Shown here piece after piece: positions 48,294-64,000 of a stretch of DNA of 64,000 bases. Origin of the DNA: an uncultured Acidobacteriota bacterium. GTDB taxonomy: Bacteria > Acidobacteriota > Vicinamibacteria > Fen-336. The stretch covers positions 9,038-73,037 of the forward strand of contig CAZNNH010000003.1 of NCBI GenBank assembly GCA_964574335.1. The letters are read 5' to 3'. The translations under genes and the position numbers were made by a program. The notes beneath the pieces were generated by a model, which saw only the letters and a list, made by a program, of their open reading frames with translations, was not told the DNA's origin and did not search any database. Numbering within the stretch: the stretch's first letter is position 1; every line of letters begins with the position of its first letter.

Positions 48294-48608
48294 CTACCGC
48301 GCGTAGGCCGAGTCGTGATCGGGGTGCAGTGAGACGACGCGCAGGAAGTCCCCATCGCGGTACGCGACAGCGCGGATCTTCTGGCTCAGGCGCAGCGAGT
48401 GGACCTTGGCCCCGTTTGGGGCCTTGAGGTGCTCGATCCCCTCCCATTGGAGGCCGGTGTGGCGGTAGAGGGCCGTCCACTCCAGCGCACGCAGTCGGCG
48501 CAAGGGCGCAACGACCTGCTTGAGCTCGGCCTGCTCCAACCTGAAGAAGACGTCCTGGAACTCCGGGCTGTTCAGGTCGAGGCGGACGCGGCTACTTCCG
48601 GCGGCCAC
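48294..48608 (-). CDS. Type II toxin of the RelE/ParE superfamily (HigB/ParE-like)
   Basis: 104 aa. The C-terminal 'LKAPNGAKVHSLRLSQKIRAVAYRDGDFLRVVSLHPDHDSAY' fits the RelE/ParE pattern (G..vxSLRisxxyRxxyrxxgdxLxvlxxxHxxxxY). It lies immediately downstream of an AbrB-type antitoxin and overlaps it by 17 nt. Confidence 0.55.
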   Translation of the reverse strand: MAAGSSRVRLDLNSPEFQDVFFRLEQAELKQVVAPLRRLRALEWTALYRHTGLQWEGIEHLKAPNGAKVHSLRLSQKIRAVAYRDGDFLRVVSLHPDHDSAYAR

Positions 48609-48891
48609 GCGAGCGTCCCCGCGGGCCCGTGCGGCGCCTCGCCAACTCCTCCACGTCGCTCTCCGCCGCAGGCGTCGCCGCGGCCCAGGCGAGGCCGCTT
48701 CCGATGCGGGAGCGGTCGGGCTCTTCGAGCGTCCAGAGCTGGGACTGCGGCACCACCGCGACGGCCGTCAGCAGGATGCTGCCGTCCGGGCGCCGCTCGA
48801 CGCGGAGGGGCTTCCCCGCGTAGCTCTTGCCGAGCGAGATCTGTCCGCTCTTTCCCACCACCTTGATCTCGGCGCCGGCCACGATGGGCAT
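48592..48891 (-). CDS. AbrB/MazE/SpoVT-type (swapped-hairpin) antitoxin
   Basis: About 100 aa. The N-terminal 'MPIVAGAEIKVVGKSGQISLGKSYAGKPLRVERRPDGSILLTAV' matches the SpoVT/AbrB swapped-hairpin domain. The C-terminus is disordered. The start at 48891 is preceded by AAGGGAGGGGG. Confidence 0.6.
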   Translation of the reverse strand: MPIVAGAEIKVVGKSGQISLGKSYAGKPLRVERRPDGSILLTAVAVVPQSQLWTLEEPDRSRIGSGLAWAAATPAAESDVEELARRRTGPRGRSRGRRK

Positions 48892-48912
48892 TGCCCCCTC
48901 CCTTACTGCTGT

Positions 48913-48924
48913 CATGCTAGCATG
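48913..48924. promoter_or_regulatory. Perfect 12-bp palindrome CATGCTAGCATG about 22 nt upstream of the antitoxin start (candidate TA operator)
   Basis: The palindrome sits inside the probable promoter of the antitoxin-toxin operon. A TTGGCA (-35-like) lies immediately 5' on the coding strand. Confidence 0.35.
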
Positions 48925-49191
48925 CCAACATGCAGACGTGCAATGGTGCCGCACGACTCCCGACGACAGAGCAGGCTTCGGGCATCTTGGACGTCGCGGC
49001 TGTGGTTGGCCGTGGGACGCTCGCGTCCCAGAACCGCGCATCAGGAAGCTCCCAGCTCCCCGGTTGTGCCGGTATGTGCCGGCACTGCGCGTTCCGGGCA
49101 CAGGCATGAGGCTTGCACCCAGCTCCGCGGAGTGCGCCACCGACCGCATCGACGGCCCGGTCCCGAGGATCGACGGCGGCGAGGGAGATCG

Positions 49192-51588
49192 ATGATGACC
49201 GAGTTCCTCCGAGACCTGGGGTTTGCGCTGAGGGTGCTTCGACGCCGGCCCGGATTCACCTCGGTGATCACCCTGACTCTGACGCTCGGGATCGGGGTGA
49301 CAGTGCTGGTCTTCAGCCTCGTCAAGGGCCTGCTCTTCGACTCACCCTTCCGCGACGTCGATCGGCTGCTGTTCATGGCGGAACGCGTCTCGGGGATGGA
49401 TGGTGGCGCGCTCTCCTATCCCAGCCTGCTCGAGTATCAGCGGGATGATCGGGCGCTCGAAGAGCTGGCGGGCTTCCGCCTACAGTCCTGGAACCTCACG
49501 GGCGACTCCGCCCCCGAGCGCCTCGACGGGCTCCAGGCGTCCTCGAGCCTCTTCAGCACCCTGGGCGTCCGCCCCATCCTCGGACGTACGTTCACCGCCG
49601 AGGAGGACCGACCCGGAGGCGCCCGCGTGGTGGTCGTCAGCGAGGAGCTCTGGCGGCGGCGCTTCGGCGCCGATCCGAGCGTCCTGCAACGGACCCTCCA
49701 GCTAGACGACACGCCCTACCGCATCGTGGGTGTGATGCCCTCCCGCTTCCAGATCTGGCGCCGGGCCGACCTCTTCACCCCCCTCGGGCATCGTGCCCCC
49801 TATACCGACCGACCCGAGTGGAAGTGCATCTACGCGGTCGGGAGGCTGAAGCCCCGGGTTTCGCCGGATCAGGCCCGCGCGGCCATGGCCGTCGTGGCCA
49901 GCCGCCTGGCCCAGGCCGACCCCACGGCCAATGGCGGGCGGGAGTGCAGCCTGACGCCGATGCGGGATCATGCCGTCCGAGGCGTGCGACGGGTTCTCTG
50001 GACCCTCGCCGGCGTGTGCCTGCTGGTTCTCGTGCTCTGTTGCATCAACGTGGCCGGCCTCCTGCTGGCCCACGGAGTGGAGCGATCCCGGGAGCTCTCG
50101 ATTCGCGCCTCCCTGGGTGCCGGAAGGCTCAGGCAGGTCCGACCGCTGCTCGCCCAGAGCCTTGTCCTCGCCCTCGGCGGCGCCGCGGGCGGCTTGCTGC
50201 TCGCCACCTGGGGCGTCCGCCTGGCCACCGTCGTGCTCCCCCGCTTCACTCCGGACGCCGGTCTCCCCTGTATCGACGCCCCGGCCGTGATCGTTGCGGT
50301 CCTCCTGGCCGTGGTCGTCGGCATCACCACCGGGAGCGCCCCCGCCTGGTTCTTGACACGCCGACCCGCGGCCACCGCCGAGGCGGCGCGCCAGGGTCGG
50401 GCCACGGCCGGCCACACCCGACTTCAGGACGGCCTGGTTGTGGCCCAGGTGGCCCTGGCGGTCGTGACGCTGACCGCCGCAACCCTCATGCTGCACAGCC
50501 TCCTGAAGCTAATGGCCGTCCCGCTGGGCCTCCAGCAGCAGGGAGTCGTCCTGGCCGACCTGACCCTCCCGCCGCACACGTACCCGGATGCAGCCCGCGT
50601 CAGGCTCTTCTATCAGGAGGCCCTCGCGCAGACGGAGCGAATCCCTGGCGTCCGCTCGGCGGCGATGATGACCACAGCGCCGATGAGCGGCATCCCCTGG
50701 GACGCCTCCTATTCGGTAGAGGGCCAGGAGCCGCCCGACAACGACGACGAGAACGAGTGTGACTACGTGGCCGTGTCCCGCGACTACTTCAGGACCCTGG
50801 GGATCGCTTTGACGGAAGGACGCGCCTTCTCCGATCGGGACGATGCCGAGGCGATCCCTGTCGCCGTCGTGAATCGCGCTTTCACCGCCCGGCACCTCGC
50901 CGGTGGCAGCCCGCTCGGGAAGCGCCTCTCCTTCCCCTTCATGGGCGGCCGCTCGCTCGAGATCGTCGGAGCCGTGGAGGACGTGCGGCGCTGGGGACCT
51001 GAGAGCGCTCCCCGCGTGACGATCTACGTGCCGCTAGCTCAGAGCCCATCGGCGATCGTGACCCTCGCCACCCGTACTTCGCACGCCCAAGGGCTGGCGG
51101 CCTCCATGCGAGACGCGCTCCGGCGGGTCGATCCGAATCTCCCGCTGGCAAACCTTCGGACCATGGCCGAGGTGGTGTCCGAGGCATCGGGCACACGGCG
51201 CATGGCGGCCTCGTCCCTCGCCACCCTGGGCGGGATTGCGCTTTGTCTTTCGGCCCTGGGGCTCTATGGCGCTCTGAGCCGACGGGTGGTGAGTCGGAGG
51301 CGCGAGATCGGCATTCGCCTCGCGCTCGGCGCCCAGAGCCGAGAGATCCTCCGGCATTTCATGAGGCGCGGGCTGTGGCTGACCGCCGCGGGGGCGGCTG
51401 CCGGAAGCGTCATCTCACTCCTGCTCGCCCCCCTGCTCGCCAGCCTCCTCTTCGGAGTCCGTCCGAGGGATCCCATCTCCCTGGTGGTCGTTCTCGCCGT
51501 CATGCTTCTCGCCGCGGCCCTGGCGACCTCGCTCCCTGCTCGGCGCGCCGCCAGCGTGGACCCGGCGGTGGCGCTGCGGGGCGAGTAA
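49192..51588 (+). CDS. ABC-transporter permease of the MacB/FtsX type with duplicated FtsX domains (ADOP family), with no adjacent ATPase
   Basis: About 798 aa. The N-terminus 'LRDLGFALRVLRRRPGFTSVITLTLTLGIGVTVLV' is typical of FtsX-family permeases. There are two periplasmic MacB_PCD-like regions and two 4-TM FtsX modules (RELSIRASLGAGRLRQV... and REIGIRLALGAQSREIL...). Shine-Dalgarno GAGGGAG upstream. Confidence 0.8.
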   Translation: MMTEFLRDLGFALRVLRRRPGFTSVITLTLTLGIGVTVLVFSLVKGLLFDSPFRDVDRLLFMAERVSGMDGGALSYPSLLEYQRDDRALEELAGFRLQSWNLTGDSAPERLDGLQASSSLFSTLGVRPILGRTFTAEEDRPGGARVVVVSEELWRRRFGADPSVLQRTLQLDDTPYRIVGVMPSRFQIWRRADLFTPLGHRAPYTDRPEWKCIYAVGRLKPRVSPDQARAAMAVVASRLAQADPTANGGRECSLTPMRDHAVRGVRRVLWTLAGVCLLVLVLCCINVAGLLLAHGVERSRELSIRASLGAGRLRQVRPLLAQSLVLALGGAAGGLLLATWGVRLATVVLPRFTPDAGLPCIDAPAVIVAVLLAVVVGITTGSAPAWFLTRRPAATAEAARQGRATAGHTRLQDGLVVAQVALAVVTLTAATLMLHSLLKLMAVPLGLQQQGVVLADLTLPPHTYPDAARVRLFYQEALAQTERIPGVRSAAMMTTAPMSGIPWDASYSVEGQEPPDNDDENECDYVAVSRDYFRTLGIALTEGRAFSDRDDAEAIPVAVVNRAFTARHLAGGSPLGKRLSFPFMGGRSLEIVGAVEDVRRWGPESAPRVTIYVPLAQSPSAIVTLATRTSHAQGLAASMRDALRRVDPNLPLANLRTMAEVVSEASGTRRMAASSLATLGGIALCLSALGLYGALSRRVVSRRREIGIRLALGAQSREILRHFMRRGLWLTAAGAAAGSVISLLLAPLLASLLFGVRPRDPISLVVVLAVMLLAAALATSLPARRAASVDPAVALRGE

Positions 51589-54998: not shown

Positions 54999-55247
54999 AT
55001 GGCCAGCCTGACGATCCGAAAGCTCGACGAGCGCATCAAAACGCGACTTCGCATCCGGGCCGCCCGACACGGCCGGTCGATGGAGGATGAGGCTCGCACT
55101 TTGCTCCGGAACGCCCTCCGGGACGAGGTGACCGCCGGAACCGACCTGGCCGAGGCCATTCGCGCCCGCTTCGTTCCCCTCGGTGGAGTCGACCTGACCC
55201 TTCCGGAGCGCGAGCCGATCCGCGAGCCCCCGAAGCCTGGCCGATGA
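54999..55247 (+). CDS. vapB: Type II antitoxin VapB/FitA-like (ribbon-helix-helix, plasmid-stability-protein type)
   Basis: 'MASLTIRKLDERIKTRLRIRAARHGRSMEDEARTLLRNAL' is the canonical FitA/VapB RHH N-terminus. Its stop overlaps the vapC ATG. Confidence 0.8.
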   Translation: MASLTIRKLDERIKTRLRIRAARHGRSMEDEARTLLRNALRDEVTAGTDLAEAIRARFVPLGGVDLTLPEREPIREPPKPGR

Positions 55248-55684
55248 TCCTCCTCGACACGAACGTACTGTCGGAGCTGATGAAGCCGCGACCCGACCCG
55301 GCCGTGCTCGAGTGGGTCGGGTCGCAGCCTGCAGCCAGCCTGTACACGACGAGCATCACCCAGGCCGAGATACAGCTCGGCCTGATGCTCCTGCCGCGGG
55401 GTGCCCGCCGAAACGCGCTGCAGGCGGCCGCCGACGCGATGTTCGCGGAGGAGCTCGAGGGTCGAGTCCTTCCGTTTGGCTCGGAGGCGGCTCGGCCCTA
55501 CGCGGAGATTGCCTCCGACCGGCGGCGGGCGGGACGGCCGATTTCCCAGTTCGATGCCCAGATCGCTGCAGTCGCGCGTGTCGCCGGAGCGGCAATCGCA
55601 ACCCGCAACGTGGCCGACTTCGCCGGCTGCGGCGCGAGGCTCGTCAACCCGTGGGGACCGGACCGGCCGGCCAGCAAGAGATAG
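55244..55684 (+). CDS. vapC: PIN-domain ribonuclease toxin VapC/FitB
   Basis: 'MILLDTNVLSELMKPRPDPAVLEWV' (first acidic residue, the LDTNV motif), 'TTSITQAEIQLG' and 'IAATAR' with downstream acidic residues consistent with PIN. Confidence 0.85.
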   Translation: MILLDTNVLSELMKPRPDPAVLEWVGSQPAASLYTTSITQAEIQLGLMLLPRGARRNALQAAADAMFAEELEGRVLPFGSEAARPYAEIASDRRRAGRPISQFDAQIAAVARVAGAAIATRNVADFAGCGARLVNPWGPDRPASKR

Positions 55685-55753
55685 CCCGGGTTCAGGCGGT
55701 GTGGGCGCGCTGGGTGTCCACGTTGACGACGTCCCGCGTCCCGCGACGAAGCT

Positions 55754-56917
55754 CTAGTACTCCTCGCCATAGAGGACCCGCAGCCAGCGGGCGGCCTCGC
55801 CCGCGCCGCCCTCGAGAGGGAACAGGCTGCGCCGCGCGGTCGGGTTGAGCCAGGTCGCGACCCAGAGGCTGAGGCCGTTGTCTCGCAGGAGGCGGATGTC
55901 GGCGCGCGCGAAGATCCTCCCGCCGCGCGCCTTCAGGTAGAAGGCTTCCTCGCACACGTTGGAGGCCTCAGGCGACGGGCGCAACCAGCCTCGCCAGGAG
56001 GCCTGATAGCCTCTCTCGGGAGCGAGGAGCCGGTAGCCCCGCTCGGCCTCGGCCACCTGCACGCCCCCGTCGGGCGCCTCGAGCTCCACACGCCAGGGGC
56101 AACCCTCTGCTGCGCCCTCAGAGGAGGCAAGCCGGATGGTGAGGTCGGCAATCGGGGTGGGGTCCATTGTGATCTGCTGGCGCAGCACATTGACCCGGTA
56201 GCACCCCTCCCCGGGAACGACCTTCAGCGCGACCACGCGTGAGAGCAGCACCGAGGACGCCGGCGGCGACAACCAGGCGGGCAAGACGATCTCGTGGAAG
56301 GATCCCCGTCTCTGGTACGAGGCCAACCGGGCGTCGATGGCGTAGCCGTCAGCCTCGGACCCGCAGACCTGCACGCGACGCTCGCCGTAGAAAGTCAGAT
56401 GCACACGCCCGCTCGGGTCCGTGACGTGGTCTCCCAGCCCGCACATCCGCAGGCGGGCGCCCACCACGGGCCGGTCGTACTGGTCGCGAACGCTCACGGT
56501 GCACGTGCCTCGAAAGACCAGGTGCAGACACAGCAGCAGACCCGCCGCGACCCCCAGCGGTAGACGTACGGCGCCCCGCTTCCACCAGGCCTCTCGGGGC
56601 CGGACCCAGAGTGCGGCCAGCCCGATGGGAACGGGCAGCAGGAACAGGAACACCACGAACACCACAAACGAGAATAGGCCCCACGGGTCCACCGGGCCGG
56701 CCAGGGCCCTCGCGAATCTCGATACGTCGAAGTGGAGTCCCCATAGGGCCACGACGATCGTGACCGACACGAAGGTCACCGCAAGAAGCCAACCCCAGAT
56801 TGTCGGATAGTGACGGGATCCCCGGGCCCTGCGCAGGACGAGGCTGGTCAGCGTGCCAATGCCGCCGTAGGCGAGGAGTCCCACCACGACGAGGAGCTGG
56901 TGAAGGGGCGGTAGCAT
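55754..56917 (-). CDS. Hypothetical membrane protein with 4 TM helices and a C-terminal soluble domain of about 270 aa
   Basis: The start is taken at the ATG at 56917 with a GGTGG Shine-Dalgarno sequence upstream. TM helices (LLVVVGLLAYGGIGTLTSLVL, TIWGWLLAVTFVSVTIVVALWGL, LFSFVVFVVFLFLLPVPIGLAAL). The Cys-containing C-terminal domain has normal composition and no recognised family. Confidence 0.45.
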   Translation of the reverse strand: MLPPLHQLLVVVGLLAYGGIGTLTSLVLRRARGSRHYPTIWGWLLAVTFVSVTIVVALWGLHFDVSRFARALAGPVDPWGLFSFVVFVVFLFLLPVPIGLAALWVRPREAWWKRGAVRLPLGVAAGLLLCLHLVFRGTCTVSVRDQYDRPVVGARLRMCGLGDHVTDPSGRVHLTFYGERRVQVCGSEADGYAIDARLASYQRRGSFHEIVLPAWLSPPASSVLLSRVVALKVVPGEGCYRVNVLRQQITMDPTPIADLTIRLASSEGAAEGCPWRVELEAPDGGVQVAEAERGYRLLAPERGYQASWRGWLRPSPEASNVCEEAFYLKARGGRIFARADIRLLRDNGLSLWVATWLNPTARRSLFPLEGGAGEAARWLRVLYGEEY

Positions 56918-56979
56918 GCCGCCACCATGACCTGCGCCCGTCGTTCGCTGTGACCCGCCGTCCCGGTGGTGGCGGCGGC

Positions 56980-57368
56980 TCAGGCGATGTGGGCGCCCTG
57001 GGTGTTGCCGTTGCTGTTGCCGGACGGGCGGCGGAAGACGCTGACGTGCCCGTCCTCGTCCAACCAGCGGAGCTGGACGTCGTTCGGGATGTCGCTCCAT
57101 ACCGGGTAGCGCCCCACCCCGTTCCAGGCCGGGCCTTCGGCCCAGAGCATGCACCGTGGAGGCGCTGGATCGGCGTGTTGCCGATCACGTAGCGGCCGAA
57201 TCGGGGATCCAGCGCCACGATGTCGGGATCCGGGTAGCGCACGGGTTCGCCGCCGGAGAAGTCGCGGGACTGCGCCCGCGCCCAGCTCGCCCCGGCAGCG
57301 GCGGCGACCGCGGCGCCGATGAAGCCGCGACGACCGAGCCCGGCCGGGCGGGTCGTATTGCAGGTCAT
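56980..57368 (-). pseudogene. Remnant of an SMP-30/gluconolactonase/LRE-like (SGL) gene: the N-terminal third only, with a frameshift
   Basis: The frame from the ATG at 57368 gives a Tat-type signal (RRGFIGAAVAAAAGA) and 'RYPDPDIVALDPRFGRYVIGNTPIQRLHG', then shifts by +1 near 57165. 'WAEGPAWNGVGRYPVWSDIPNDVQLRWLDEDGHVSVFRRPSGNSNGNTQGAHIA' continues in the next frame to a stop at 56980. About 170 C-terminal residues are absent. Confidence 0.5.
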
Positions 57369-57489
57369 GGTCCTGTCCCGAAGCACGGGCGCCGCGCGAC
57401 CTACGACGACCTCCTCCAGGTGCCGTTCGAAGCCGTCGGGCTCGACCTCCTCGCCCTCTGGGGCGAAACACGGCCGTCCACCACCTAGC

Positions 57490-57898
57490 TCAGTAGCCGC
57501 GCTGCTTGTCGACGACGTTGCGGAGCGGCTGGCCGCGCACGAAGCGCTCGATGTTCTCGCGGAACAGGCCGATCCGGCGCTCGCTGAACCCGTCGGACCG
57601 CCCGGCGATGTGTGGGGTGAGGATCACGTCGTCGCGCTTCCACAGCGCGTGGTCGGGGGGGAGCGGCTCGGGCTCGGTGACGTCCAGGCCGGCCCCGGCC
57701 AGCTTCCCCGACTCGAGGGCCGCCAGCAGGGCGAGGGCGTGGTCGGCGATCTCGGGCCCCTGGATGATCTTGGCGTTGGTCAGCACGATCTCCGACTCGC
57801 GCAGCTCGGGCGCCGCCAGGTAGCCCTCGACGCCGGAGCTCCCCACCTGCACCCAGTGCACCTTCCCGCCCTCGCGGAGGAGCGCCGCCACGCCCTAC
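57490..57898 (-). pseudogene. Remnant of a D-isomer-specific 2-hydroxyacid dehydrogenase gene, with an internal deletion and an upstream in-frame stop
   Basis: The 133-aa ORF joins an N-terminal substrate-domain segment (KVHWVQVGSSGVEGYL...IVLTNAKIIQGPEIADHALALLAAL) directly to the C-terminal catalytic segment (GAGLDVTEPEPLPPDHALWKRDDVILTPHIAG). The NAD-binding Rossmann core of about 150 aa is missing. In-frame homology continues upstream (GGGKADDLLPRVSACDALVGFSV) but is broken by a TAG at 57896-57898 and a further TGA. Confidence 0.45.
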
Positions 57899-58011
57899 AC
57901 GGAGAAGCCCACCAGGGCGTCGCACGCCGAAACCCGCGGGAGCAGATCGTCGGCCTTGCCACCGCCCAGAACGCGGTATCATCGCCGCGCCGGTCGCCAT
58001 CCACGGTTCGC

Positions 58012-59451
58012 ATGCCCGACACGCCCAAGCCGACGGCCGCAGACGAGGCCCGGACGCTCCCCCCCGACGAGGGCACGGCTTCCGCGCCAGCACCACGGCA
58101 GGTGCGGTGCTCGACCGACTCGTCCCTGCAGGAGACCCTCCACATCGAGCTGCCGTCCCAAGCGGCGGCGCAAAGGCCCGAAGCGCCCGAGGCCCCCGGG
58201 ACCCAGCGGGAGCGCTACCAGGAACTGGGCGAGATCGGCCGTGGCGGCATGGGCACCGTCCACCGTACCCTCGACAGCCTGCTGCTGCGCGAGATCGCGA
58301 TGAAGACCATCGAGCGTCCGTTGGCGGACGCAGCCAGCGTGGTCCGCTTCGTCGAGGAGGCCCAGATCACGGGGCAGCTCGACCACCCCAACATCGTCCC
58401 GGTCTACGACTTCGGCGCCCAACCCAACGGCCAGGCCTTCTTCACCATGAAGCTGGTCAGCGGGCGCACCCTCGGCGAGCTGATCACCGATCTCCACGAT
58501 CAGGGCGTGCCGAGCGACGGCCTCGAGCGGCTGCTGCGAATGATCCTCAAGGTCTGCGAGGCGGTCTCCTTCGCGCACAGCCGGGGGGTCGTCCACCGCG
58601 ACCTGAAGCCGGCCAACATCATGATCGGGAGCCACGGCCAGGTCTACGTGATGGACTGGGGGCTGGGCCTGCTCCTCGGCGCCAGCCCGCGCGCCGAGCC
58701 GAGCGGAGGGCCGCCGGCTGACTCGATCCGGACCTCGAGCGCCCGTCGCTCGGGCCCCTCCCTGGCCGGCACGGTCGGCTACATGGCGCCGGAGCAGGCC
58801 CTGGGGCGCCTGGCCGAGATCTCTCCCCGCACCGACGTCTTCGCGATCGGGGCCATCCTCTACGAGGTGCTGACCGGGCGGCCCCCGTACCAGGCCGACG
58901 ACATCCACCAGGCGCTGATGCTGGCGCGATCGGGTCAGATCGTGCCGCCCGACCAGGCGGCCGAGGGCCGGCAGCTCCCCCCCGGTCTGTGCGAGATCAC
59001 GATGCGGGCACTGCAGCCCGCCCAGCAGGACCGCTATTCGTCGGTCGACCACCTGGGTGCCGACCTGGAGGGCTTCCTGCGTGGCGGCGGCTGGTTCGCC
59101 ACCCGACGTTTCCGCTCCGGCGAGGTGGTGATCGAGGAGGGCGGCCCGGGGGACGCCGCCTACGTGGTCGTCGAGGGTCGCCTGGAGGTGTTCCAGCAGC
59201 GCGCCGAGGGACGCAGCGCGATCCGGACCTTGGGGCCGGGAGACGTGTTCGGCGAGGCCGCGCTGTTGAGCTCCAAGCCCCGCACCGCCAGCGTGGCCGC
59301 CCTCGACGACGTCACCGTCAAGGTGATCACGGCCGAGGCGTTCGAGCGCGAGCTGGGCCGCAGCTCTTGGCTGTCGGCCCTGGTCAAGCAGCTCACCGCG
59401 CGTTTCCTGGAGCTCGAGGGCCGGCTGGCCGCGACCGAAGCCTCCCGGTAG
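58012..59451 (+). CDS. Ser/Thr protein kinase fused to a C-terminal cyclic-nucleotide-binding (CAP effector) domain
   Basis: Kinase subdomains: 'LGEIGRGGMGTVHR' (Gly-loop), 'AMK', 'HRDLKPANIM' (catalytic loop), 'DWGLG' (DFG-like) and 'GTVGYMAPE'. The C-terminal cNMP-binding domain is 'FRSGEVVIEEGGPGDAAYVVVEGRLEVF...GPGDVFGEAALLSSKPRTASVAALDDV' with the FGE and RTA motifs. Confidence 0.85.
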   Translation: MPDTPKPTAADEARTLPPDEGTASAPAPRQVRCSTDSSLQETLHIELPSQAAAQRPEAPEAPGTQRERYQELGEIGRGGMGTVHRTLDSLLLREIAMKTIERPLADAASVVRFVEEAQITGQLDHPNIVPVYDFGAQPNGQAFFTMKLVSGRTLGELITDLHDQGVPSDGLERLLRMILKVCEAVSFAHSRGVVHRDLKPANIMIGSHGQVYVMDWGLGLLLGASPRAEPSGGPPADSIRTSSARRSGPSLAGTVGYMAPEQALGRLAEISPRTDVFAIGAILYEVLTGRPPYQADDIHQALMLARSGQIVPPDQAAEGRQLPPGLCEITMRALQPAQQDRYSSVDHLGADLEGFLRGGGWFATRRFRSGEVVIEEGGPGDAAYVVVEGRLEVFQQRAEGRSAIRTLGPGDVFGEAALLSSKPRTASVAALDDVTVKVITAEAFERELGRSSWLSALVKQLTARFLELEGRLAATEASR

Positions 59452-59457
59452 CGCCCG

Positions 59458-60891
59458 TCAGTAGCCGTGCTCGAGGCGGCGGCAGGCGGGCTGGTGGCCC
59501 GCCTGGCAGGCCTTCTGGTAGAGAGCCTTGACCCTCTCCGGGTCCCGCTGCATCGCGGTGCTGGTCTCGATCAACTGCCCGAGCGCGTAGCACCCCTCCG
59601 CGACGCCCAGGTCGCAGGCCTTGCCGTAGAGCTCCGCCGCCCGGCCCACGTCCCTGACCACCGAGCTCCCCTTCTCGAGCCGCCCGGCCATCCGGTAGCA
59701 GGCCAAAGCCGCTCCCTGGTCGCACGCCTTCTGGTAGAGGGTCATGGACTTCGGCATGTCTCGGGCCACCCCCACCGCGGTCTCGTACATGTAGGCGAGC
59801 TGGGCGCAGGCTTCCACCGCACCCGCCGCGCACGACTGGTCGAAGAGCTTGGCCGAGCGGGCCAGGTCCTTGGGCAGGTACTTGCCCTCCAGGTACAACC
59901 GCGCCAGGGCCAGGCAGCCCTGCGCGTCGTCGGCCGAGCAAGCCTTGCGCTCCAGGTTGGCGCCCTTGGCCAGGTCCTGGGTCGAGCGGGGCCGCGCCAG
60001 GAGCTGTCGTGCCAGCTCGTGGCAGGCCCGGGCCACCTCCCCGTCGCAGGCACGGGTGAGCAGCTCGGTGGACCTCTCGCGGTTGCGGGTGGTCCCCACC
60101 CCGTCGCGAAGCATCAGGCCCAGCCGGAAGCAGGAGCGCCATTCCTGCGCCTCGCACGCCTTCGAGTGGAGCGTGAGGGCGTGAGCCAGGTCCTTCGGGA
60201 CGCCGTCCCCCTGCTCGTAGGCCACGCCGAGGTGATAGCACCCGTCCGTGACCTGTGCCTGGCAGACCCGGTCCGCCAGCTCCGCAGCCCGCTTCCGATC
60301 CCCCGCCGGCCGCCCCGGCGTCCTCAGCATCTCGGCGAGCTCGGCACACGAGGCCATGTGGCCACCCTCGCAGCCCTGCCCGAAGAGCCGCTCGGCCCGA
60401 GCCAGGTCCCGAGGGAACGGGGCTCCGTCCCGGTAGAGCTCGCCGAGGGCGCCGCAGCCGCCGGCGGTCCCGGCCTCGCACCCCTTCACGAACAGCTCCG
60501 CCGCCTGCCCGAGGTTCAGGGGGACGCCCTCTCCGGCGCGGTAGGCGGCACCGAGCCGCACGCATCCCTCGCCGCTGCCCGCCGTGCAGGCCCGCCCCAG
60601 GTACTCGAGGGCGCTGTCGACGCTGACCTTGACGCCCTCGCCCTTCCGGTGCATGCCGGCCAGCTCGAGGCAGGACTGGGCGTCGCGCAGGTTGCAGCCC
60701 TTCTCGAAGTACTTGGCCGCCTTCCCCGCATCCTGAGCCACGCCGGCTCCGGTCCGGTACATCCCGGCGGCACGGTAGCAGTCGGCGGCGCTCCCCTTGT
60801 CGCAGCTCTTCTTGGTGGTCTCGAAGTCCGCGCCGCCGGCGGTGCCGGCCAGCAGCAAGGACGCCCCGATCAAAGCCGCCGCGTGTCGCAT
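59458..60891 (-). CDS. Secreted Sel1-like (SLR) repeat protein, Cys-rich
   Basis: Signal peptide followed by about 12 tandem 36-aa Sel1 repeats. Each carries a conserved Cys pair ('C..AA.LYR.G.GV..D...A..LY.KAC', the Hcp/HcpA-like pattern). Confidence 0.8.
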   Translation of the reverse strand: MRHAAALIGASLLLAGTAGGADFETTKKSCDKGSAADCYRAAGMYRTGAGVAQDAGKAAKYFEKGCNLRDAQSCLELAGMHRKGEGVKVSVDSALEYLGRACTAGSGEGCVRLGAAYRAGEGVPLNLGQAAELFVKGCEAGTAGGCGALGELYRDGAPFPRDLARAERLFGQGCEGGHMASCAELAEMLRTPGRPAGDRKRAAELADRVCQAQVTDGCYHLGVAYEQGDGVPKDLAHALTLHSKACEAQEWRSCFRLGLMLRDGVGTTRNRERSTELLTRACDGEVARACHELARQLLARPRSTQDLAKGANLERKACSADDAQGCLALARLYLEGKYLPKDLARSAKLFDQSCAAGAVEACAQLAYMYETAVGVARDMPKSMTLYQKACDQGAALACYRMAGRLEKGSSVVRDVGRAAELYGKACDLGVAEGCYALGQLIETSTAMQRDPERVKALYQKACQAGHQPACRRLEHGY

Positions 60892-60946
60892 GCTCCCCTC
60901 CCTGCCTCGCCCCCCCGAGTCGGGCCGGGTCGGCTGGACGCTGCGC

Positions 60947-62815
60947 TCAGCTCTCTTGCCGAGGCAGTGCCCGAAGGTGGCTCTCGATCTCCGGTGAGAT
61001 CGAGGTGAAGCGGACCACCAGCACCCGGCCGTCCTCGCCCCGGACCTCCGTCACCTTGGCATACAGGTCGCCCGCGACCGGCGCTCCATCCTCACCCTTC
61101 AGCTCCAGCTTCAGGTTGCTGAGGGGGGGCAGCGAGCTCTCCGAGAGGATCTCGGCACCGATCTCCGAGAGCTTCGAAAGCCGCGCCGAGAACCACTCGT
61201 CGCCGACCTGCTTGCCCTCCAGGATCCAGAAGCCCATCTCCGCCGGGCGGCTCAGCGCCTGCAGATGGTCCTGCCGCTCGGGCAGGAACACATCGTACGA
61301 GCCGCCGATGCCCTTCAGGTCGTAGACGGTGACCGGCTCGCGGGCCCCCTTCGCCTTCACCGACAGCCTGTCGCCGACCTGCACCGCGTCGCCCGTCCGC
61401 TGCCGCGTCGCCTCGGAGATCAGGATCTGCCCGCCCACCGTGTAGGACTCGATGCGGCCGGTGAGGTTGACCGGCGGGCCCACGATCCCGTACTTGGTGC
61501 GCCGCTGGGACCCGATATTGCCCACCACCACCTCGCCGGTGTGGATGGCGATCCCCATCTCGATGCGCGGCAGCCCCTCGCTCTCGTTGCGGGCGTTGAC
61601 CTCCGCCATGGCGAGCTGCATCTCCACCGCGCACGCTACCGCGCGCCGGGCGTCGTCCTCACGGGAGAAGGGAGCCCCGAAGATGGTCAGGATCGCGTCG
61701 CCGATGAACTCGTCGATGGTCCCCTGGTGACGCATGATGATGTCGGTCATGTCCCCGAGGTAGCGGTTGAGCATCCGGACCACCTGCTCCGGGCCCAGCC
61801 GCTCCGACACCGAGGTGAAGGCCCGCAGGTCCGACATCATGATGGTGACGGTCTTCTTCTCCCCGCCCAGCTTCAGCCCCTCCGGCGACTCCAGCAGGCT
61901 CTCCACCACCTCGTCGCTGAGGTAGCGACCGAAGATGCTCCGGATGAATCTGTTGCGAACCTCGAGGTCCTCGGCCAGGCGCTGGATCTCGTCCTTCTGC
62001 CGCTTGAGCACCAACTGGGTCTGGACCCGGGCCATCACCACCGGGAAGTCCAGGGGCTTGGTGACGTAGTCGTTGGCGCCGAGCTTCAGGGCCTCGACGA
62101 TGTCCTCGCTCTGGTCTTTGGCGGTGGCCATGATCACCGGCAGGTCGGCCATGGCGTAGGTCCGGCGCAGCGTCTCCAGCACCTCCAGGCCGCTCATCCC
62201 GGGCATCATCACGTCGAGCAGCACCAGGTCGTAGCGGCTGCCGCTGATCTTCAGCAGCGCCTGCGCCCCGTCTTCTGCTACCTCCACCTCGAAGCCGCGC
62301 TGGGTCAGCCGGCGCGAGAGCATGTCCCGGTTCATCTCGTTGTCATCGACGACCAGGAGCGGCCCGCCCTCCCCCGCCGTGGCGGGCGTCCGCCGGGCCA
62401 GGTCCAGCTCCCCCGACGGGGCGTCCGGGCTCGCCGGCGGGGCGGCGGCCGGCTCCGAGCCGGCGGCGGGCGGCGGGGCCTCCGGGACGGCGGCGGGCGT
62501 CGGAGCAGCGGCCGGTGACGCGGCCTCGGCGGCGGGCGTCGGAGACGCGCCGGTTCCGGCCTCTGCACCCTGCGCCGCAGCAGCCTGGGCGGCGGCCGCC
62601 GGAGACAGGTACTTGTCGATCAGCTCGAGCTGCCGTCGCGCCGCCTGCTGGATCTTCTTCAGGTCCGAGGCGAGGTCCTCCCGACCCTCCTCATCGGCGA
62701 TCTCCTCGAGCAGCTCGCTGTAGCCGATGATCTGGTTGACCGGCGTGCGCAGGTCGTGGCGCGCCTGCGAGAACGGGTCGGCGGGCTTTCTGCTCTTGGC
62801 GCTCTCGTCGCTCAT
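60947..62815 (-). CDS. Multidomain signalling protein: HisKA-like phosphoacceptor (DHp) domain, Ala/Pro-rich linker, REC receiver, class III adenylate/guanylate cyclase catalytic domain, and a C-terminal domain of about 130 aa
   Basis: H-box 'FSQARHDLRTPVNQIIGYSELL' with no downstream HATPase_c. REC domain 'LLVVDDNEMNRDML...DLVLLDVMMPGMSG...YVTKP'. Cyclase domain 'VTIMMSDLRAFTSV...GTIDEFIGDAILTIFGAP...HTGEVVVGNIGS...VGPPVNLTGR'. The start is taken at MSDESAKS (62815). Confidence 0.8.
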   Translation of the reverse strand: MSDESAKSRKPADPFSQARHDLRTPVNQIIGYSELLEEIADEEGREDLASDLKKIQQAARRQLELIDKYLSPAAAAQAAAAQGAEAGTGASPTPAAEAASPAAAPTPAAVPEAPPPAAGSEPAAAPPASPDAPSGELDLARRTPATAGEGGPLLVVDDNEMNRDMLSRRLTQRGFEVEVAEDGAQALLKISGSRYDLVLLDVMMPGMSGLEVLETLRRTYAMADLPVIMATAKDQSEDIVEALKLGANDYVTKPLDFPVVMARVQTQLVLKRQKDEIQRLAEDLEVRNRFIRSIFGRYLSDEVVESLLESPEGLKLGGEKKTVTIMMSDLRAFTSVSERLGPEQVVRMLNRYLGDMTDIIMRHQGTIDEFIGDAILTIFGAPFSREDDARRAVACAVEMQLAMAEVNARNESEGLPRIEMGIAIHTGEVVVGNIGSQRRTKYGIVGPPVNLTGRIESYTVGGQILISEATRQRTGDAVQVGDRLSVKAKGAREPVTVYDLKGIGGSYDVFLPERQDHLQALSRPAEMGFWILEGKQVGDEWFSARLSKLSEIGAEILSESSLPPLSNLKLELKGEDGAPVAGDLYAKVTEVRGEDGRVLVVRFTSISPEIESHLRALPRQES

Positions 62816-63780
62816 GGTGTCGATCGAAGCTGCAGCACGAAGGCCTTCCGCCGGGCATCCCACAGGTAGGTCCGCCCCTCGGTGGCCACGTGGAAGTTGG
62901 TGACCCCCCGCCCGTGGCGGCGCGAGGCGGCCCGGATCTGGGGATCGGTCAGGGTCGGGCCGTGGTGCCCGGCCAGGATCAGGGTATCGGGGCGGTCCTT
63001 CGCCAGATGGGCGGCGTGCTCCTGAGACCCGTGGCCGTATCGGTGGTCGCGGATGTCCGGGAAATGGGCGTCGAGGAGAGCCAGGTGGGCGCCCTCCAGG
63101 AGGCGGGCCTCGGACCGGGCGGTCTTGGCGGTCGGCTCGTGATCACACATGTAGACCACGGTCGGGCCGCTCTTCGAGCTCAGACGGTAGCCGACCGTGT
63201 CCAGGAGCTGAATGCCCTCGCCCTCGCCGCTGTAGTGGTTGAGGGGGCCGGTGCGCACAGTCCACCCGCTGATTCGACGGCGCTGGCCGGACCCGACGGT
63301 CCGATACTCGAGGTGGGCCAGGGTGCCGGCCGACAGCAGGCCGAGGGGGACGTAGGATGGGTGGCCGTAGCCCGAGAGGATGGCGCCAAGGGCCTCGGCC
63401 GGCGCCGAGATACAGACCTCGAGCCCGTTCCCCTTGTCCCAGAACCAGTCGGCGTCCTTCAGCCCCTCCCAGTGGTCCATGTGGGCATGGGTGATCAGGA
63501 CGTGCAGCCGCTTGACCTCCTGGAACCGCCCCTGGCTGCCAAGGGCGTGGGAGAGCAACGCCAGCCCGCGGCCGGCGTCGAAGACGAACAGATCCTGGCC
63601 GCAAAGGACCGAATAGCACGAGGTGGCGTTGCCGACGTTGGAGCGCCGGGGGAACAGGCTGCGGGAGCCGCGACAACCCCAGACGTCGAAGTGAATGGGC
63701 GGCCACGAGCCGTCCTGCACGCTCTGCTTGCGCGCCTTCCCGTACCCGGCCGTCTCGAAGACCGCTCTCGCTGTCGCCAT
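62812..63780 (-). CDS. MBL-fold metallo-hydrolase (candidate class II-type cyclic-nucleotide phosphodiesterase)
   Basis: 'VLITHAHMDHWEGL' (the HxHxDH metal-binding motif), further His/Asp ligands (YMCDHEP, LAGHHGP). 4-nt overlap with the upstream cyclase gene. Confidence 0.75.
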   Translation of the reverse strand: MATARAVFETAGYGKARKQSVQDGSWPPIHFDVWGCRGSRSLFPRRSNVGNATSCYSVLCGQDLFVFDAGRGLALLSHALGSQGRFQEVKRLHVLITHAHMDHWEGLKDADWFWDKGNGLEVCISAPAEALGAILSGYGHPSYVPLGLLSAGTLAHLEYRTVGSGQRRRISGWTVRTGPLNHYSGEGEGIQLLDTVGYRLSSKSGPTVVYMCDHEPTAKTARSEARLLEGAHLALLDAHFPDIRDHRYGHGSQEHAAHLAKDRPDTLILAGHHGPTLTDPQIRAASRRHGRGVTNFHVATEGRTYLWDARRKAFVLQLRSTP

Positions 63781-63900
63781 CCTAAGGGAACGCCTCCACC
63801 GCCCGGAGCCCCCCAGCCCGAGGAGATCGACCGCCCTGCGCGGCGGCGGATCGCGCCATCCTATCAGACCTGATACCCGCTCGTGGGGATCGGGCCGGGC

Positions 63901-64000
63901 TCACACCCGCGAGAGGAAGCTCTCGATGGCGGGGCAGAAGCGCTCCATGTCCACCAGGAACGAGTCGTGGCCCTGCAGCGACGGAAGCACCGAGAACTCC
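63901..64000 (-). CDS. 3' end of a gene running off the window edge, possibly the C-terminus of an alpha/beta-hydrolase (homoserine O-acetyltransferase-like)
   Basis: The minus-strand frame reads '...EFSVLPSLQGHDSFLVDMERFCPAIESFLSRV*' with its stop at 63901-63903. 'GHDSFL...F...FL' resembles the C-terminal motif of MetX-type acyltransferases. Only 33 aa are visible. Confidence 0.3.
   Translation of the reverse strand, partial: EFSVLPSLQGHDSFLVDMERFCPAIESFLSRV

Follow-up and report, generated by a model that had tools for sequence, protein, structure and literature searches.

A plausible cyclic GMP module with candidate hydrolase and kinase reader in an uncultured Acidobacteriota bacterium

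The window analysed here, i.e. the whole stretch of 64,000 nucleotides from an uncultured Acidobacteriota bacterium, has a GC content of about 70% and carries four adjacent open reading frames with a coding-type composition (GC3 0.87-0.92; Table 1). All four were present with the boundaries given in the first-pass annotation, and the domains named there (Pkinase, cNMP_binding, Sel1, HisKA, Response_reg, Guanylate_cyc and the MBL fold, the last as Lactamase_B_2) were all recovered with Pfam where they had been placed. The proposed four-gene module had to be narrowed, however: the genes of the metallo-beta-lactamase (MBL)-fold hydrolase, the cyclase and the Sel1-repeat protein form a minus-strand operon, whereas the kinase gene lies outside this operon on the opposite strand, convergent with the Sel1 gene, with the two stop codons 6 nt apart. 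The 4-nt overlap between the hydrolase and cyclase genes is real (ACACC-ATGA-GCGAC), but its polarity is the reverse of that described earlier. The MBL gene runs at its 3′ end into the start of the cyclase gene and is therefore the first gene of the operon. The cyclase of 622 aa that starts at the overlap ATG is also the gene call of NCBI, and the same junction in other Acidobacteriota loci shows gaps of approximately 0-22 nt or overlaps.

Table 1. Features of the locus (positions in the window)
Feature	Position	Strand	Evidence
Hanks-type Ser/Thr kinase with C-terminal cyclic-nucleotide-binding domain, 479 aa; predicted cGMP reader	58012..59451	+	Pfam
Phosphate-binding cassette of the kinase cNMP-binding domain, FGEAALLSSKPRTA, residues 413-426	59248..59289	+	
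Cys-rich Sel1-repeat protein with N-terminal signal-peptide-like segment, 477 aa; last gene of the operon	59458..60891	-	
HisKA(DHp only)-REC-cyclase-PilZ protein, 622 aa; predicted receiver-gated guanylate cyclase	60947..62815	-	Pfam
C-terminal PilZ-fold domain of the cyclase, without RxxxR	60965..61207	-	Pfam PilZ 2e-05, 25.3 bits, cutoff 22.5
Class III cyclase catalytic domain, Cya2 type	61316..61858	-	Pfam Guanylate_cyc (PF00211) 1.7e-27, 96.6 bits, cutoff 21.9
Receiver domain, D157, D158, D201, T231, K253	62024..62356	-	Pfam Response_reg (PF00072) 3.6e-31, 108 bits
HisKA/DHp domain, H-box RHDLRTP (His20)	62603..62770	-	Pfam HisKA (PF00512) 1.1e-10, 41.8 bits
ATGA overlap, MBL stop TGA / cyclase start ATG	62812..62815	-	read from sequence
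MBL-fold hydrolase, 322 aa, first operon gene; candidate cGMP phosphodiesterase	62812..63780	-	
HAHMDH metal-binding motif, MBL residues 98-103	63472..63489	-	invariant in 34 family members
Intergenic region upstream of the MBL gene, ~120 nt; presumed operon promoter region	63781..63899	-	

No match to the sigma-70 consensus was found in the region upstream of the MBL gene, scans for promoters and terminators stayed at chance level, and an Rfam scan of positions 57000-64000 gave no match. Upstream of this region an unrelated gene for an alpha/beta-hydrolase ends near 63900; from its C-terminal residues we take it to be metX-like, and its counterpart in a 91%-identical relative matches Pfam Abhydrolase_1. 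The module is surrounded by housekeeping genes. An ADOP-family permease match of 797 bits points to a probable acidobacterial origin, as do the nearest relatives of both the MBL protein and the cyclase, which are found in Vicinamibacteria; the best MBL match among the species representatives scanned was 61% identical.

The Sel1 protein (Pfam Sel1 6.7e-53, six repeats scored) would be secreted, and its gene co-transcribed here with the MBL-cyclase pair. The 91%-identical relative has a gene of the same length at the same position, but across 46 other loci the pair never has a Sel1 orthologue beside it, and the sole match, at a distance of 6 kb in locus L018, is weak. The Sel1 gene is lineage-specific, a passenger or an accessory that lies outside the core module.

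The MBL family was used to anchor 46 genomes. An orthologous cyclase gene lay within 10 kb in 29 of them and was directly adjacent in 22 of these 29; the linked cyclases have catalytic domains that are 58-74% identical and the same PilZ tail. At least one cNMP gene was found at 36 of the 46 MBL loci, and none nearby at approximately ten, six of which have incomplete flanks. Among the neighbouring genes are ones for cNMP-GGDEF, TPR-cNMP, MFS/HEAT-cNMP and stand-alone cNMP-binding proteins. A cNMP-binding protein is encoded immediately upstream of the MBL gene in six Myxococcota loci and reads as cNMP-GGDEF in four of them. Moreover, the pair is sometimes fused. Fusions of the MBL-HisKA-REC-cyclase type, in which both catalytic motifs are intact, were found in three distinct 50%-identity cluster representatives and at locus L030, so that at least three distinct lineages encode them. 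Cya2-type cyclases were also found without an MBL gene. The MBL-cyclase pair recurs in many soil bacteria, with synteny that spans two phyla, and the conserved unit consists of this pair and a variable cNMP-binding reader. Thus, of the earlier expectation that the four genes would be conserved together, the part concerning producer, candidate eraser and cNMP readers held across two phyla, while the Sel1 gene was shared with the 91%-identical relative only.

The reader at this locus is a kinase with matches to Pkinase (PF00069; 5e-38, 131 bits, aa 69-343) and cNMP_binding (PF00027; 3.9e-23, 81.7 bits, aa 365-448). It has the Hanks-type features (GRGGMG loop, K98, HRD 195-197, D215 in DWG, PE 260-261), and the catalytic residues K98, H195-R196-D197, N202, D215 and P260-E261 show no or almost no variation among 29 orthologues; the best matches of the kinase domain are bacterial PknB/PknD-type kinases. 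Within the cassette, which has the form FGE...PR[TS]A, residues G414, E415, R424 and A426 are invariant in the 29 kinase orthologues; with a single exception, these have Thr or Ser at position 425. The ligand-contacting pair E415 and R424, on which the first-pass annotation had made its assignment depend, is thereby retained. The R-T/S-A motif is compatible with cGMP or cAMP as the ligand; HCN channels carry R-T-A and yet prefer cAMP, so R-T-A alone is no proof of cGMP selectivity. The kinase-cNMP_binding architecture is common to more than 120 database proteins. In the literature covered, nothing relevant was found on cNMP-binding domains in bacterial kinases or on acidobacterial cGMP, which is no proof of novelty.

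The placement of this kinase could be coincidental, in which case it would read a nucleotide made by other cyclases and the unit would be the MBL-cyclase(-Sel1) genes only. The gene is convergent to the operon and shares no promoter with it, and an indel of approximately 2.3 kb adjoins it in the comparison of the window with the 91%-identical relative. Additionally, three of five sampled more distant kinase orthologues have no linkage to any cyclase, and neither a cyclase nor a family MBL gene was found within 10 kb of orthologues P0124 (63% identical), P0205 (50%) and P0192 (47%); a Lactamase_B_2 gene near P0192 is from a different family (25% identity) and was therefore not counted as linkage. 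We nevertheless consider coincidence unlikely, since six Myxococcota loci show the linkage again with another order of the genes; there, orthologues that are 43-49% identical and have both domains lie 0.1-9 kb from the pair. In three of these loci (L032, L049 and L050) the kinase gene is divergent from the cyclase gene, with approximately 125 nt between them in L049, and one further kinase orthologue adjoins a different class III cyclase. The claim that the kinase is the reader of the module gains support from linkage in six Myxococcota genomes, but elsewhere the kinase is unlinked and is one of several readers.

The MBL protein had been proposed as a candidate eraser on account of its HxHxDH motif and of the fold used by class II cNMP phosphodiesterases, and both features were confirmed: the motif is HAHMDH, and yeast PDE1 is among the fold neighbours. 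The only Pfam matches are Lactamase_B_2 (PF12706; 3.6e-13, 50 bits, cutoff 27), Lactamase_B and Lactamase_B_3; of the two profiles suggested earlier, Lactamase_B or PDEase_II, the former was thus matched, but PDEase_II (PF02112) had no match in 34 MBL family members even at E values up to 10. Residues H98, H100, D102, H103, H182, D213, H214, D237, H239, H250 and H272 are invariant in the 34 members and include the complete set of binuclear-metal ligands (H98, H100, D102, H103, H182, D213, H272). The structure model (pLDDT 90.5) has phosphodiesterases and nucleases as fold neighbours, namely ZiPD, PhnP, YhfI, yeast class-II PDE1 with GMP, to which the fold is similar, and Apyc1. A search of PDB sequences with the family profile gave no informative relative, the only match being a weak one to an 'arylsulfatase' (2.4e-07), and YhfI was not detected. 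Assignment to an unrelated family, which had been named as a possible objection, was not supported by Pfam, NCBIfam or the fold neighbours. The protein is neither a lactonase nor a true RNase Z nor a beta-CASP enzyme: it has no beta-CASP Pfam match and only 322 aa, and it scores 26.4 bits with the NCBIfam RNase Z model TIGR02651, whose cutoff is 293. The MBL family is small (32 representatives at 50% identity) and uncharacterised, and belongs within PF12706 to the structural branch of RNase Z, PhnP and class-II phosphodiesterases.

A different activity of the MBL protein is also conceivable. The MBL-cyclase pair would then be a true unit in which the MBL protein is an RNase Z-like nuclease, a hydrolase of 2′,3′-cyclic or linear dinucleotides (pGpG, c-di-GMP) or a partner of the cyclase with a non-catalytic or regulatory role. 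We regard this as improbable. A score so far below the RNase Z cutoff does not favour a nuclease of that type, and the invariance of the full metal-ligand set argues for catalysis. In Acidobacteriota loci the MBL gene is adjoined by genes for cNMP-binding proteins, with no GGDEF gene beside it. Moreover, more distant MBL relatives are fused to cNMP_binding-GGDEF (P0449) and to GAF (P0421), and cNMP-binding and GAF domains are regulatory domains typical of cNMP phosphodiesterases.

The gene proposed as producer of a cyclic nucleotide does encode a class III cyclase, and the messenger can be narrowed to predicted cGMP on account of its Cya2-type residues. The catalytic domain matched the guanylate cyclase Cya2 (PDB 2W01) with 4.8e-72 and 246 bits. 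When the domain was aligned residue by residue with 2W01 and with 6FHT, an engineered adenylate cyclase, all eight active-site residues listed for Cya2 (PMC6005667) were found, namely D329, R331, E369, D373, G443, N450, R454 and K489. D329, D373, N450 and R454 align with D448, D492, N569 and R573 of Cya2, i.e. the metal-binding Asp pair and the transition-state Asn and Arg. The base-specificity pair E369-G443 is present instead of the Lys-Asp/Thr of adenylate cyclases, and the specificity region reads IDEFIGD here, IDEFMGD in Cya2 and IDKFMGD in the 6FHT chimera engineered to an adenylate cyclase. Because all eight residues are kept, including the Glu-Gly pair, the predicted product is cGMP.

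Signalling by cAMP, or by cAMP and cGMP together, rather than by cGMP specifically, would agree with the database names of these proteins, which call them adenylate cyclases, and with the replacement of the specificity Gly by Ala in three of 29 intact cyclase orthologues (Gly in 26 of 29). The specificity of Cya2 comes from faster GTP turnover and not from exclusive binding (review PMC4284465), and PF12706 phosphodiesterases such as Rv1339, a demonstrated cAMP/cGMP phosphodiesterase, hydrolyse both nucleotides (PMC9293780). Yet the specificity Glu is present in all 29 intact orthologues, whereas Lys takes its place in the adenylate cyclase engineered from Cya2, and Cya2 strongly prefers GTP (PMC6005667). 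We therefore hold a cAMP or mixed signal to be quite improbable and continue with cGMP as the predicted messenger.

The cyclase activity had presumably been gated, according to the first-pass annotation, by an N-terminal phosphorelay module. The H-box His and the receiver of this module are present, but no ATPase domain accompanies them: HATPase_c had no Pfam match in the cyclase protein, and the DHp domain is followed by a Pro/Ala-rich linker of approximately 75 aa. The protein is thus unable to autophosphorylate and is not a histidine kinase. With the conserved His present and the ATPase domain absent, the DHp domain is probably a His-phosphotransfer or dimerisation module. The receiver, which is 80% identical to that of a Vicinamibacteria orthologue, has its phosphorylation residues intact (acidic pocket, phospho-acceptor Asp, Thr and Lys). 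The C-terminal PilZ domain is an addition to the earlier domain list. The tail has the PilZ beta-barrel fold; no RxxxR motif was found before strand 1, where the sequence is LPERQDHLQALSRP, and none is conserved in the 29 intact cyclase orthologues. At the [D/N]xSxxG site, which reads K44-L-S46-E-I-G49, the Ser is invariant, the Gly is frequent and the D/N position varies. The tail may form a further regulatory site on the cyclase.

That the cluster would serve in anti-phage defence as a Pycsar-like system, in which a cyclase is combined with a cNMP-binding effector, is scarcely credible, since the matches of the cyclase domain to PADLOC PycC models (best 7.4e-25) and of the kinase to PD-T4-6 kinase models are generic (86 bits versus 246 for Cya2), the MBL and Sel1 proteins are without PADLOC matches, no TM or TIR cNMP-binding effector is adjacent, and the housekeeping surroundings, the two-component input and the synteny conserved across phyla all speak against it.

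We read the locus as a plausible module for cGMP synthesis, degradation and kinase read-out, with a probability of approximately 0.6 and with all activities predicted. An unlinked hybrid histidine kinase would pass a phosphate to the cyclase protein, ending on Asp201 of the receiver. Phosphorylation of the receiver would alter the cyclase dimer via the helical linker, and GTP would be converted to cGMP. The MBL hydrolase, translationally coupled to the cyclase by the ATGA overlap, would hydrolyse cGMP to 5′-GMP and so keep the signal transient or local. For the read-out, binding of cGMP to the C-terminal domain of the kinase may relieve autoinhibition, and the activated kinase would phosphorylate its substrates, as eukaryotic PKG does.

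Bacterial cGMP signalling rests on few cases, namely Synechocystis Cya2, Rhodospirillum centenum and Xanthomonas. We know of no bacterial guanylate cyclase that has a dedicated family of cGMP-degrading enzymes as its partner, and of no bacterial cGMP-dependent protein kinase that has been characterised. It is tempting, if tentative and somewhat doubtful, to propose a widespread and undescribed cGMP system in Acidobacteriota and Myxococcota, with a new MBL family of cGMP phosphodiesterases coupled or fused to a Cya2-type cyclase, a PKG-analogue reader and, through the PilZ-fold domain of the cyclase and the neighbouring cNMP-GGDEF proteins, a possible feedback from cGMP via c-di-GMP to the cyclase. 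If true, this would provide a defined candidate family of cGMP phosphodiesterases that is small enough to survey, a natural synthase-hydrolase fusion for studying the balance of opposing activities, and a path by which cGMP acts on Ser/Thr phosphorylation in soil phyla that are abundant and genetically hard to work with.

The circuit had been described as new as a unit. Receiver-gated cyclases and neighbouring genes for a cyclase and a cNMP receptor are already known, so that the claim of novelty is narrower than it was made. In cyanobacterial CyaC, a receiver upstream of a class III cyclase and a complete kinase (HisKA and HATPase_c) are present in one chain. The algal 2c-Cyclop guanylate cyclases (PMC6284317) likewise have a receiver upstream of a class III cyclase and histidine-kinase modules in the same chain, again with a complete kinase (HisKA and HATPase_c), whereas the window cyclase has the DHp domain only. 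The catalytic domain of the window cyclase is closely related to that of Cya2 of Synechocystis PCC 6803 and has the same eight active-site residues. The CHASE2-transmembrane N-terminus of Cya2 is common to the Myxococcota cyclase orthologues; in the window cyclase, DHp and receiver domains take the place of CHASE2. The window cyclase also carries the PilZ-fold domain, Cya2 having been compared by its catalytic domain.

The Xanthomonas campestris pair XC_0250/XC_0249 similarly places a class III guanylate cyclase gene beside a gene for a cNMP-binding effector, and XC_0249 has the cNMP-GGDEF architecture seen in the four Myxococcota genes upstream of MBL. XC_0250 has a TPR-type partner domain, and the reader XC_0249 is a diguanylate cyclase, whereas the reader in the window is a kinase. 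To our knowledge, neither an MBL-fold hydrolase nor a Ser/Thr kinase is part of the Xanthomonas system. The R. centenum proteins gcyB and gcyC, which were considered as MBL homologues, are described only as hypothetical proteins and as non-catalytic subunits. With the atypical class-II phosphodiesterases (M. tuberculosis Rv1339, C. glutamicum CpdA and, as structural template, B. subtilis YhfI) the MBL protein shares PF12706 and the HxHxDH binuclear site. YhfI is among its best Foldseek matches (E 3.8e-13, TM normalised to target 0.73-0.80), but is only approximately 17% identical. The MBL family also differs from this group by extra invariants, namely W34-G-x-R-G-S, N51, C55-Y-S, H214, D237, H239 and H250. 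Dictyostelium GbpA, a class IIb, MBL-type and cGMP-stimulated cGMP phosphodiesterase, also couples an MBL catalytic domain to cNMP-binding domains, as does P0449 by fusion; GbpA is, however, eukaryotic and holds catalytic and sensor domains on one chain, whereas the window MBL protein stands alone and is coupled to the synthase. Finally, in eukaryotic PKG and in the window kinase alike, a single polypeptide holds both a Ser/Thr kinase domain and a cNMP-binding domain whose cassette is of the R-T-A type. Unlike PKG, the window kinase has a single, C-terminal cNMP-binding domain, and the resemblance is one of function.

The locus at 58012-63780 comprises four long ORFs with a coding-type third-position G+C of 0.87-0.92 in a window with a G+C content of about 70%, and all four genes and all domains named in the first-pass annotation were recovered by Pfam in their expected places (see table). 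The 4-nt overlap between the MBL and cyclase genes (ATGA) exists, but its direction had to be reversed: the ATG of the cyclase gene overlaps the stop of the MBL gene, which is thus the first gene of a minus-strand MBL-cyclase-Sel1 operon, to which the kinase gene is convergent. The public gene call for the cyclase gives the same 622-aa product with the same ATG start. The Sel1 gene follows the cyclase gene after 55 nt, with no terminator-like site between the two, and its product, with a signal-peptide-like N-terminus and Cys-rich repeats, was taken to be a passenger or accessory protein that is lineage-specific and co-expressed. The intergenic region 5' of the MBL gene measures about 120 nt, and beyond it ends an unrelated alpha/beta-hydrolase gene, whose C-terminal residues were read as metX-like and whose counterpart in the close relative matches Pfam Abhydrolase_1. 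The further neighbours are ordinary (VapBC pair, methyltransferase, BamB-like protein, ADOP permease, DnaJ and amidase). The ADOP permease, taken with the likeness of the MBL and cyclase genes to those of Vicinamibacteria, suggests an Acidobacteriota origin of the window. In the 91%-identical relative the gene order is VapBC, kinase, 478-aa gene, cyclase, MBL and alpha/beta hydrolase. There the toxin-antitoxin pair, which is FitA-like/PIN, abuts the kinase gene directly, so that about 2.3 kb at ~55700-58000 of the window represents an indel between the two genomes; a 466-aa ORF within this indel had no Pfam or NCBIfam match. A 133-aa ORF just upstream of the kinase gene, with a very high GC3 of 0.99, looks like a truncated dehydrogenase remnant from its profile match.

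Features of the locus, its surroundings and the compared loci (window coordinates unless a locus from another genome is named)
Feature	Coordinates	Strand	Evidence or remarks
Kinase	58012-59451	+	Pfam Pkinase 5e-38, cNMP_binding 3.9e-23
Sel1-repeat protein	59458-60891	-	Pfam Sel1 6.7e-53
Cyclase	60947-62815	-	Pfam HisKA 1.1e-10, Response_reg 3.6e-31, Guanylate_cyc 1.7e-27; C-terminal PilZ 25.3 bits
MBL protein	62812-63780	-	Pfam Lactamase_B_2 3.6e-13; HAHMDH motif
ADOP-family duplicated MacB/FtsX permease	48469-51588	+	TIGR03434, 797 bits
VapB-like / VapC (PIN) pair	54999-55684	+	genes overlap by 4 nt
133-aa ORF	57490-57891	-	match confined to last 43 positions of 2-Hacid_dh_C profile
L030 fusion	L030 9836-12709		single-chain MBL-HisKA-REC-cyclase; natural fusions 878-957 aa overall
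L014 cluster	L014 1780-9958		conserved Acidobacteriota gene order, similar in L010, L026, L028, L047
Kinase orthologue by other cyclase	L059 6515-9757	-	50% identical; divergent from class III cyclase of CHD-AAA_16-TPR type
Cya2-type REC-cyclases	L057 8001-9515, L058 8001-9515		504 aa

For the analysis of gene context, 46 loci from species-representative genomes were anchored on the MBL family and their flanks were searched with the window proteins. An orthologous cyclase with a 58-74% identical catalytic domain and the same PilZ tail was found in 29 of them, and a thirtieth was severed by a contig end; at six of the loci where no cyclase was detected, under 1 kb of sequence was available downstream. 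In 22 loci the cyclase gene lies immediately next to the 3' end of the MBL gene; in Acidobacteriota the two run in the same direction and overlap or are about 0-22 nt apart, and in Myxococcota they are convergent. In seven further loci the cyclase gene lies 5-8.5 kb upstream within a conserved cluster. With about one copy of the gene in a genome of 5-10 Mb, such adjacency by chance is expected at well below 1%. Like Cya2, the Myxococcota cyclases have CHASE2 and transmembrane segments. Co-conservation in relatives held for the MBL-cyclase pair, in two phyla, but not for the whole block of four genes, as the kinase is facultative and no Sel1 orthologue was found beside the pair outside the close relative.

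The strongest single result on this context is the occurrence of gene fusions. Besides the L030 protein, the representatives of three distinct clusters at 50% identity (P0365, P0371 and P0372; 878-899 aa) are single-chain MBL-HisKA-REC-cyclase proteins, with HxHxDH, IDEF.GD and KYG.. all kept in P0365 and P0371, and HxHxDH and IDEFIGD kept in P0372. Two shorter proteins pairing the MBL domain with HisKA (P0366 and P0367) seem to be truncated versions of the fusion. GGDEF-EAL proteins provide a precedent for joining synthase and hydrolase in one chain. Among next-tier relatives, P0449 (875 aa) is an MBL-cNMP_binding-GGDEF and P0421 (600 aa) an MBL-GAF protein, which bring to mind GbpA of Dictyostelium, a cGMP phosphodiesterase of the MBL type that carries cNMP-binding domains; animal phosphodiesterases, too, are regulated by GAF domains.

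One or more cNMP genes are present at 36 of the 46 loci. In six Myxococcota loci the MBL gene is immediately preceded by a gene for a protein with a cNMP-binding domain; this upstream gene is cNMP-GGDEF by Pfam in L043 and shows a readable GGDEF motif in L034 and L050, and a cNMP-GGDEF gene lies ~1.7 kb upstream in L025 (Holophagales); the Xanthomonas cGMP receptor XC_0249 has the same architecture. Other loci encode TPR-cNMP proteins, a 1069-aa MFS/TLC-HEAT-cNMP protein or stand-alone cNMP-binding proteins. The annotation of the kinase as carrying a CAP-type cNMP-binding domain was confirmed, with the Glu and Arg of the phosphate-binding cassette (FGE...PR[T/S]A) invariant in 29 orthologues, and the full Hanks residue set is present. 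This architecture occurs in more than 120 database proteins, mainly from Myxococcota, and in six Myxococcota loci an orthologue and the MBL-cyclase pair are 0.1-9 kb apart, the orthologue being transcribed divergently from the cyclase in L032, L049 and L050. Neither a cyclase nor a family MBL gene lies within 10 kb of three other orthologues, with identities of 63%, 50% and 47%. The linkage is regarded as genuine though facultative, which makes the kinase one of several interchangeable cNMP readers of the module; a merely coincidental adjacency, which would be compatible with the core model, is a real but minor prospect. The class III cyclase of L059 has Gln at the specificity position, which is Lys in adenylate and Glu in guanylate cyclases.

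Homologues of the MBL protein at 45-65% identity number more than 340 and come mainly from Acidobacteriota (Vicinamibacteria, Thermoanaerobaculia) and Myxococcota. When 1.84 billion cluster representatives (50% identity) were searched, just 32 scored better than 1e-30, followed by a sharp score drop, which delimits a small family. Invariant are the binuclear-metal set (H98, H100, D102, H103, H182, D213, H272), H214, D237, H239 and H250, and the N-terminal signature W-G-x-R-G-S...N-x-T-x-C-Y-S. The assignment as an MBL-fold hydrolase with an HxHxDH-type motif stood, and a beta-CASP enzyme was ruled out, as was a typical class-II phosphodiesterase (PF02112 matched in 0/34 family members). Near the top of the Foldseek ranking is YhfI, the homology-modelling template for Rv1339, an 'atypical class-II' PF12706 phosphodiesterase with demonstrated cAMP and cGMP hydrolysis (PMC9293780). 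The predicted fold says phosphodiester hydrolase on nucleotides or RNA and does not fix the substrate, which leaves some room for a different substrate or role, considered unlikely. The cyclase and cNMP gene context, the fusions and the likeness to GbpA and GAF proteins together make a cyclic nucleotide, most likely cGMP, the best reading.

Among solved structures, Cya2, a guanylate cyclase of Synechocystis (2W01, 4.8e-72, 246 bits), is the best natural match of the cyclase catalytic domain, whereas the next-ranked bacterial adenylate cyclases reach only about 110-118 bits. The aligned segment reads IDEFIGD in the window cyclase, IDEFMGD in Cya2 and IDKFMGD in 6FHT, a Cya2-derived chimera deposited as an adenylate cyclase, whose Lys results from the engineered substitution E488K. 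In 29 intact cyclase orthologues of other genomes the specificity Glu is present throughout, and just three have Ala in place of the Gly. A review lists D448, R450, E488, D492, G562, N569, R573 and K608 as the Cya2 active site and explains its preference for GTP by the unusual pair of Glu and Gly (PMC6005667). All eight are kept in the window cyclase (D329, R331, E369, D373, G443, N450, R454, K489), and on these residue patterns cGMP is the predicted product; cAMP as the messenger is improbable.

The N-terminal phosphorelay module proposed for the cyclase was found in part: HisKA with its conserved His and an intact receiver (D157, D158, D201, T231, K253) are present, but HATPase_c is missing. 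The protein is therefore no kinase, and its DHp domain could be a His-phosphotransfer or dimerisation module. A phosphorelay input is supported by one group of Acidobacteriota loci with the orthologous cyclase in a ~10-kb cluster. In L014 this runs from HisKA-REC-cyclase-PilZ, a single-domain receiver and a 353-aa gene without Pfam match to a hybrid HAMP-PAS-HisKA-HATPase-REC-REC kinase, a candidate phosphorelay partner, the 1069-aa membrane protein, which could be a cNMP-regulated transporter, and the MBL gene. No hybrid kinase of that kind adjoins the cyclase in the window. The PilZ domain, a fourth cyclase domain overlooked at first, has an established fold; its tail lacks the RxxxR c-di-GMP motif and partly keeps [D/N]xSxxG (K-L-S-E-I-G). 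In L057 and L058, one of which carries the name Candidatus Tectomicrobia, REC-cyclases 56-59% identical to the window catalytic domain and tail are the final gene of a complete chemosensory operon (MCP-CheW-CheR-CheW-CheA-CheB-[REC-cyclase]), which looks like a Wsp-like pathway with cGMP in place of c-di-GMP as output.

Domain content, catalytic and ligand-binding residues, folds, translational coupling, synteny and fusions were shown. The overall picture, drawn entirely from sequence, structure prediction and gene context and given a probability of about 0.6, is that phosphotransfer to D201 would gate cGMP synthesis, the MBL enzyme would hydrolyse cGMP, cGMP binding to the cNMP-binding domain would activate the kinase, and the PilZ tail may add further regulatory input. 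An anti-phage defence role is scarcely credible, as PADLOC matches were only generic.

The circuit had been annotated as undescribed as a unit. This holds for the MBL family and its systematic pairing and fusion with Cya2-type cyclases across two phyla, which were not found in the literature searched; neither were a PilZ-fold domain on a guanylate cyclase nor bacterial Ser/Thr kinases with a cNMP-binding domain in a cGMP context. The locus is a lead with good support that can be tested directly, in a field with little prior work. The claim does not extend to what is already known, namely Cya2-type guanylate cyclases, class III cyclases gated by receiver domains, the cyclase and cNMP-receptor gene pairs of Xanthomonas and R. 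centenum, and PF12706 and MBL-type cNMP phosphodiesterases.
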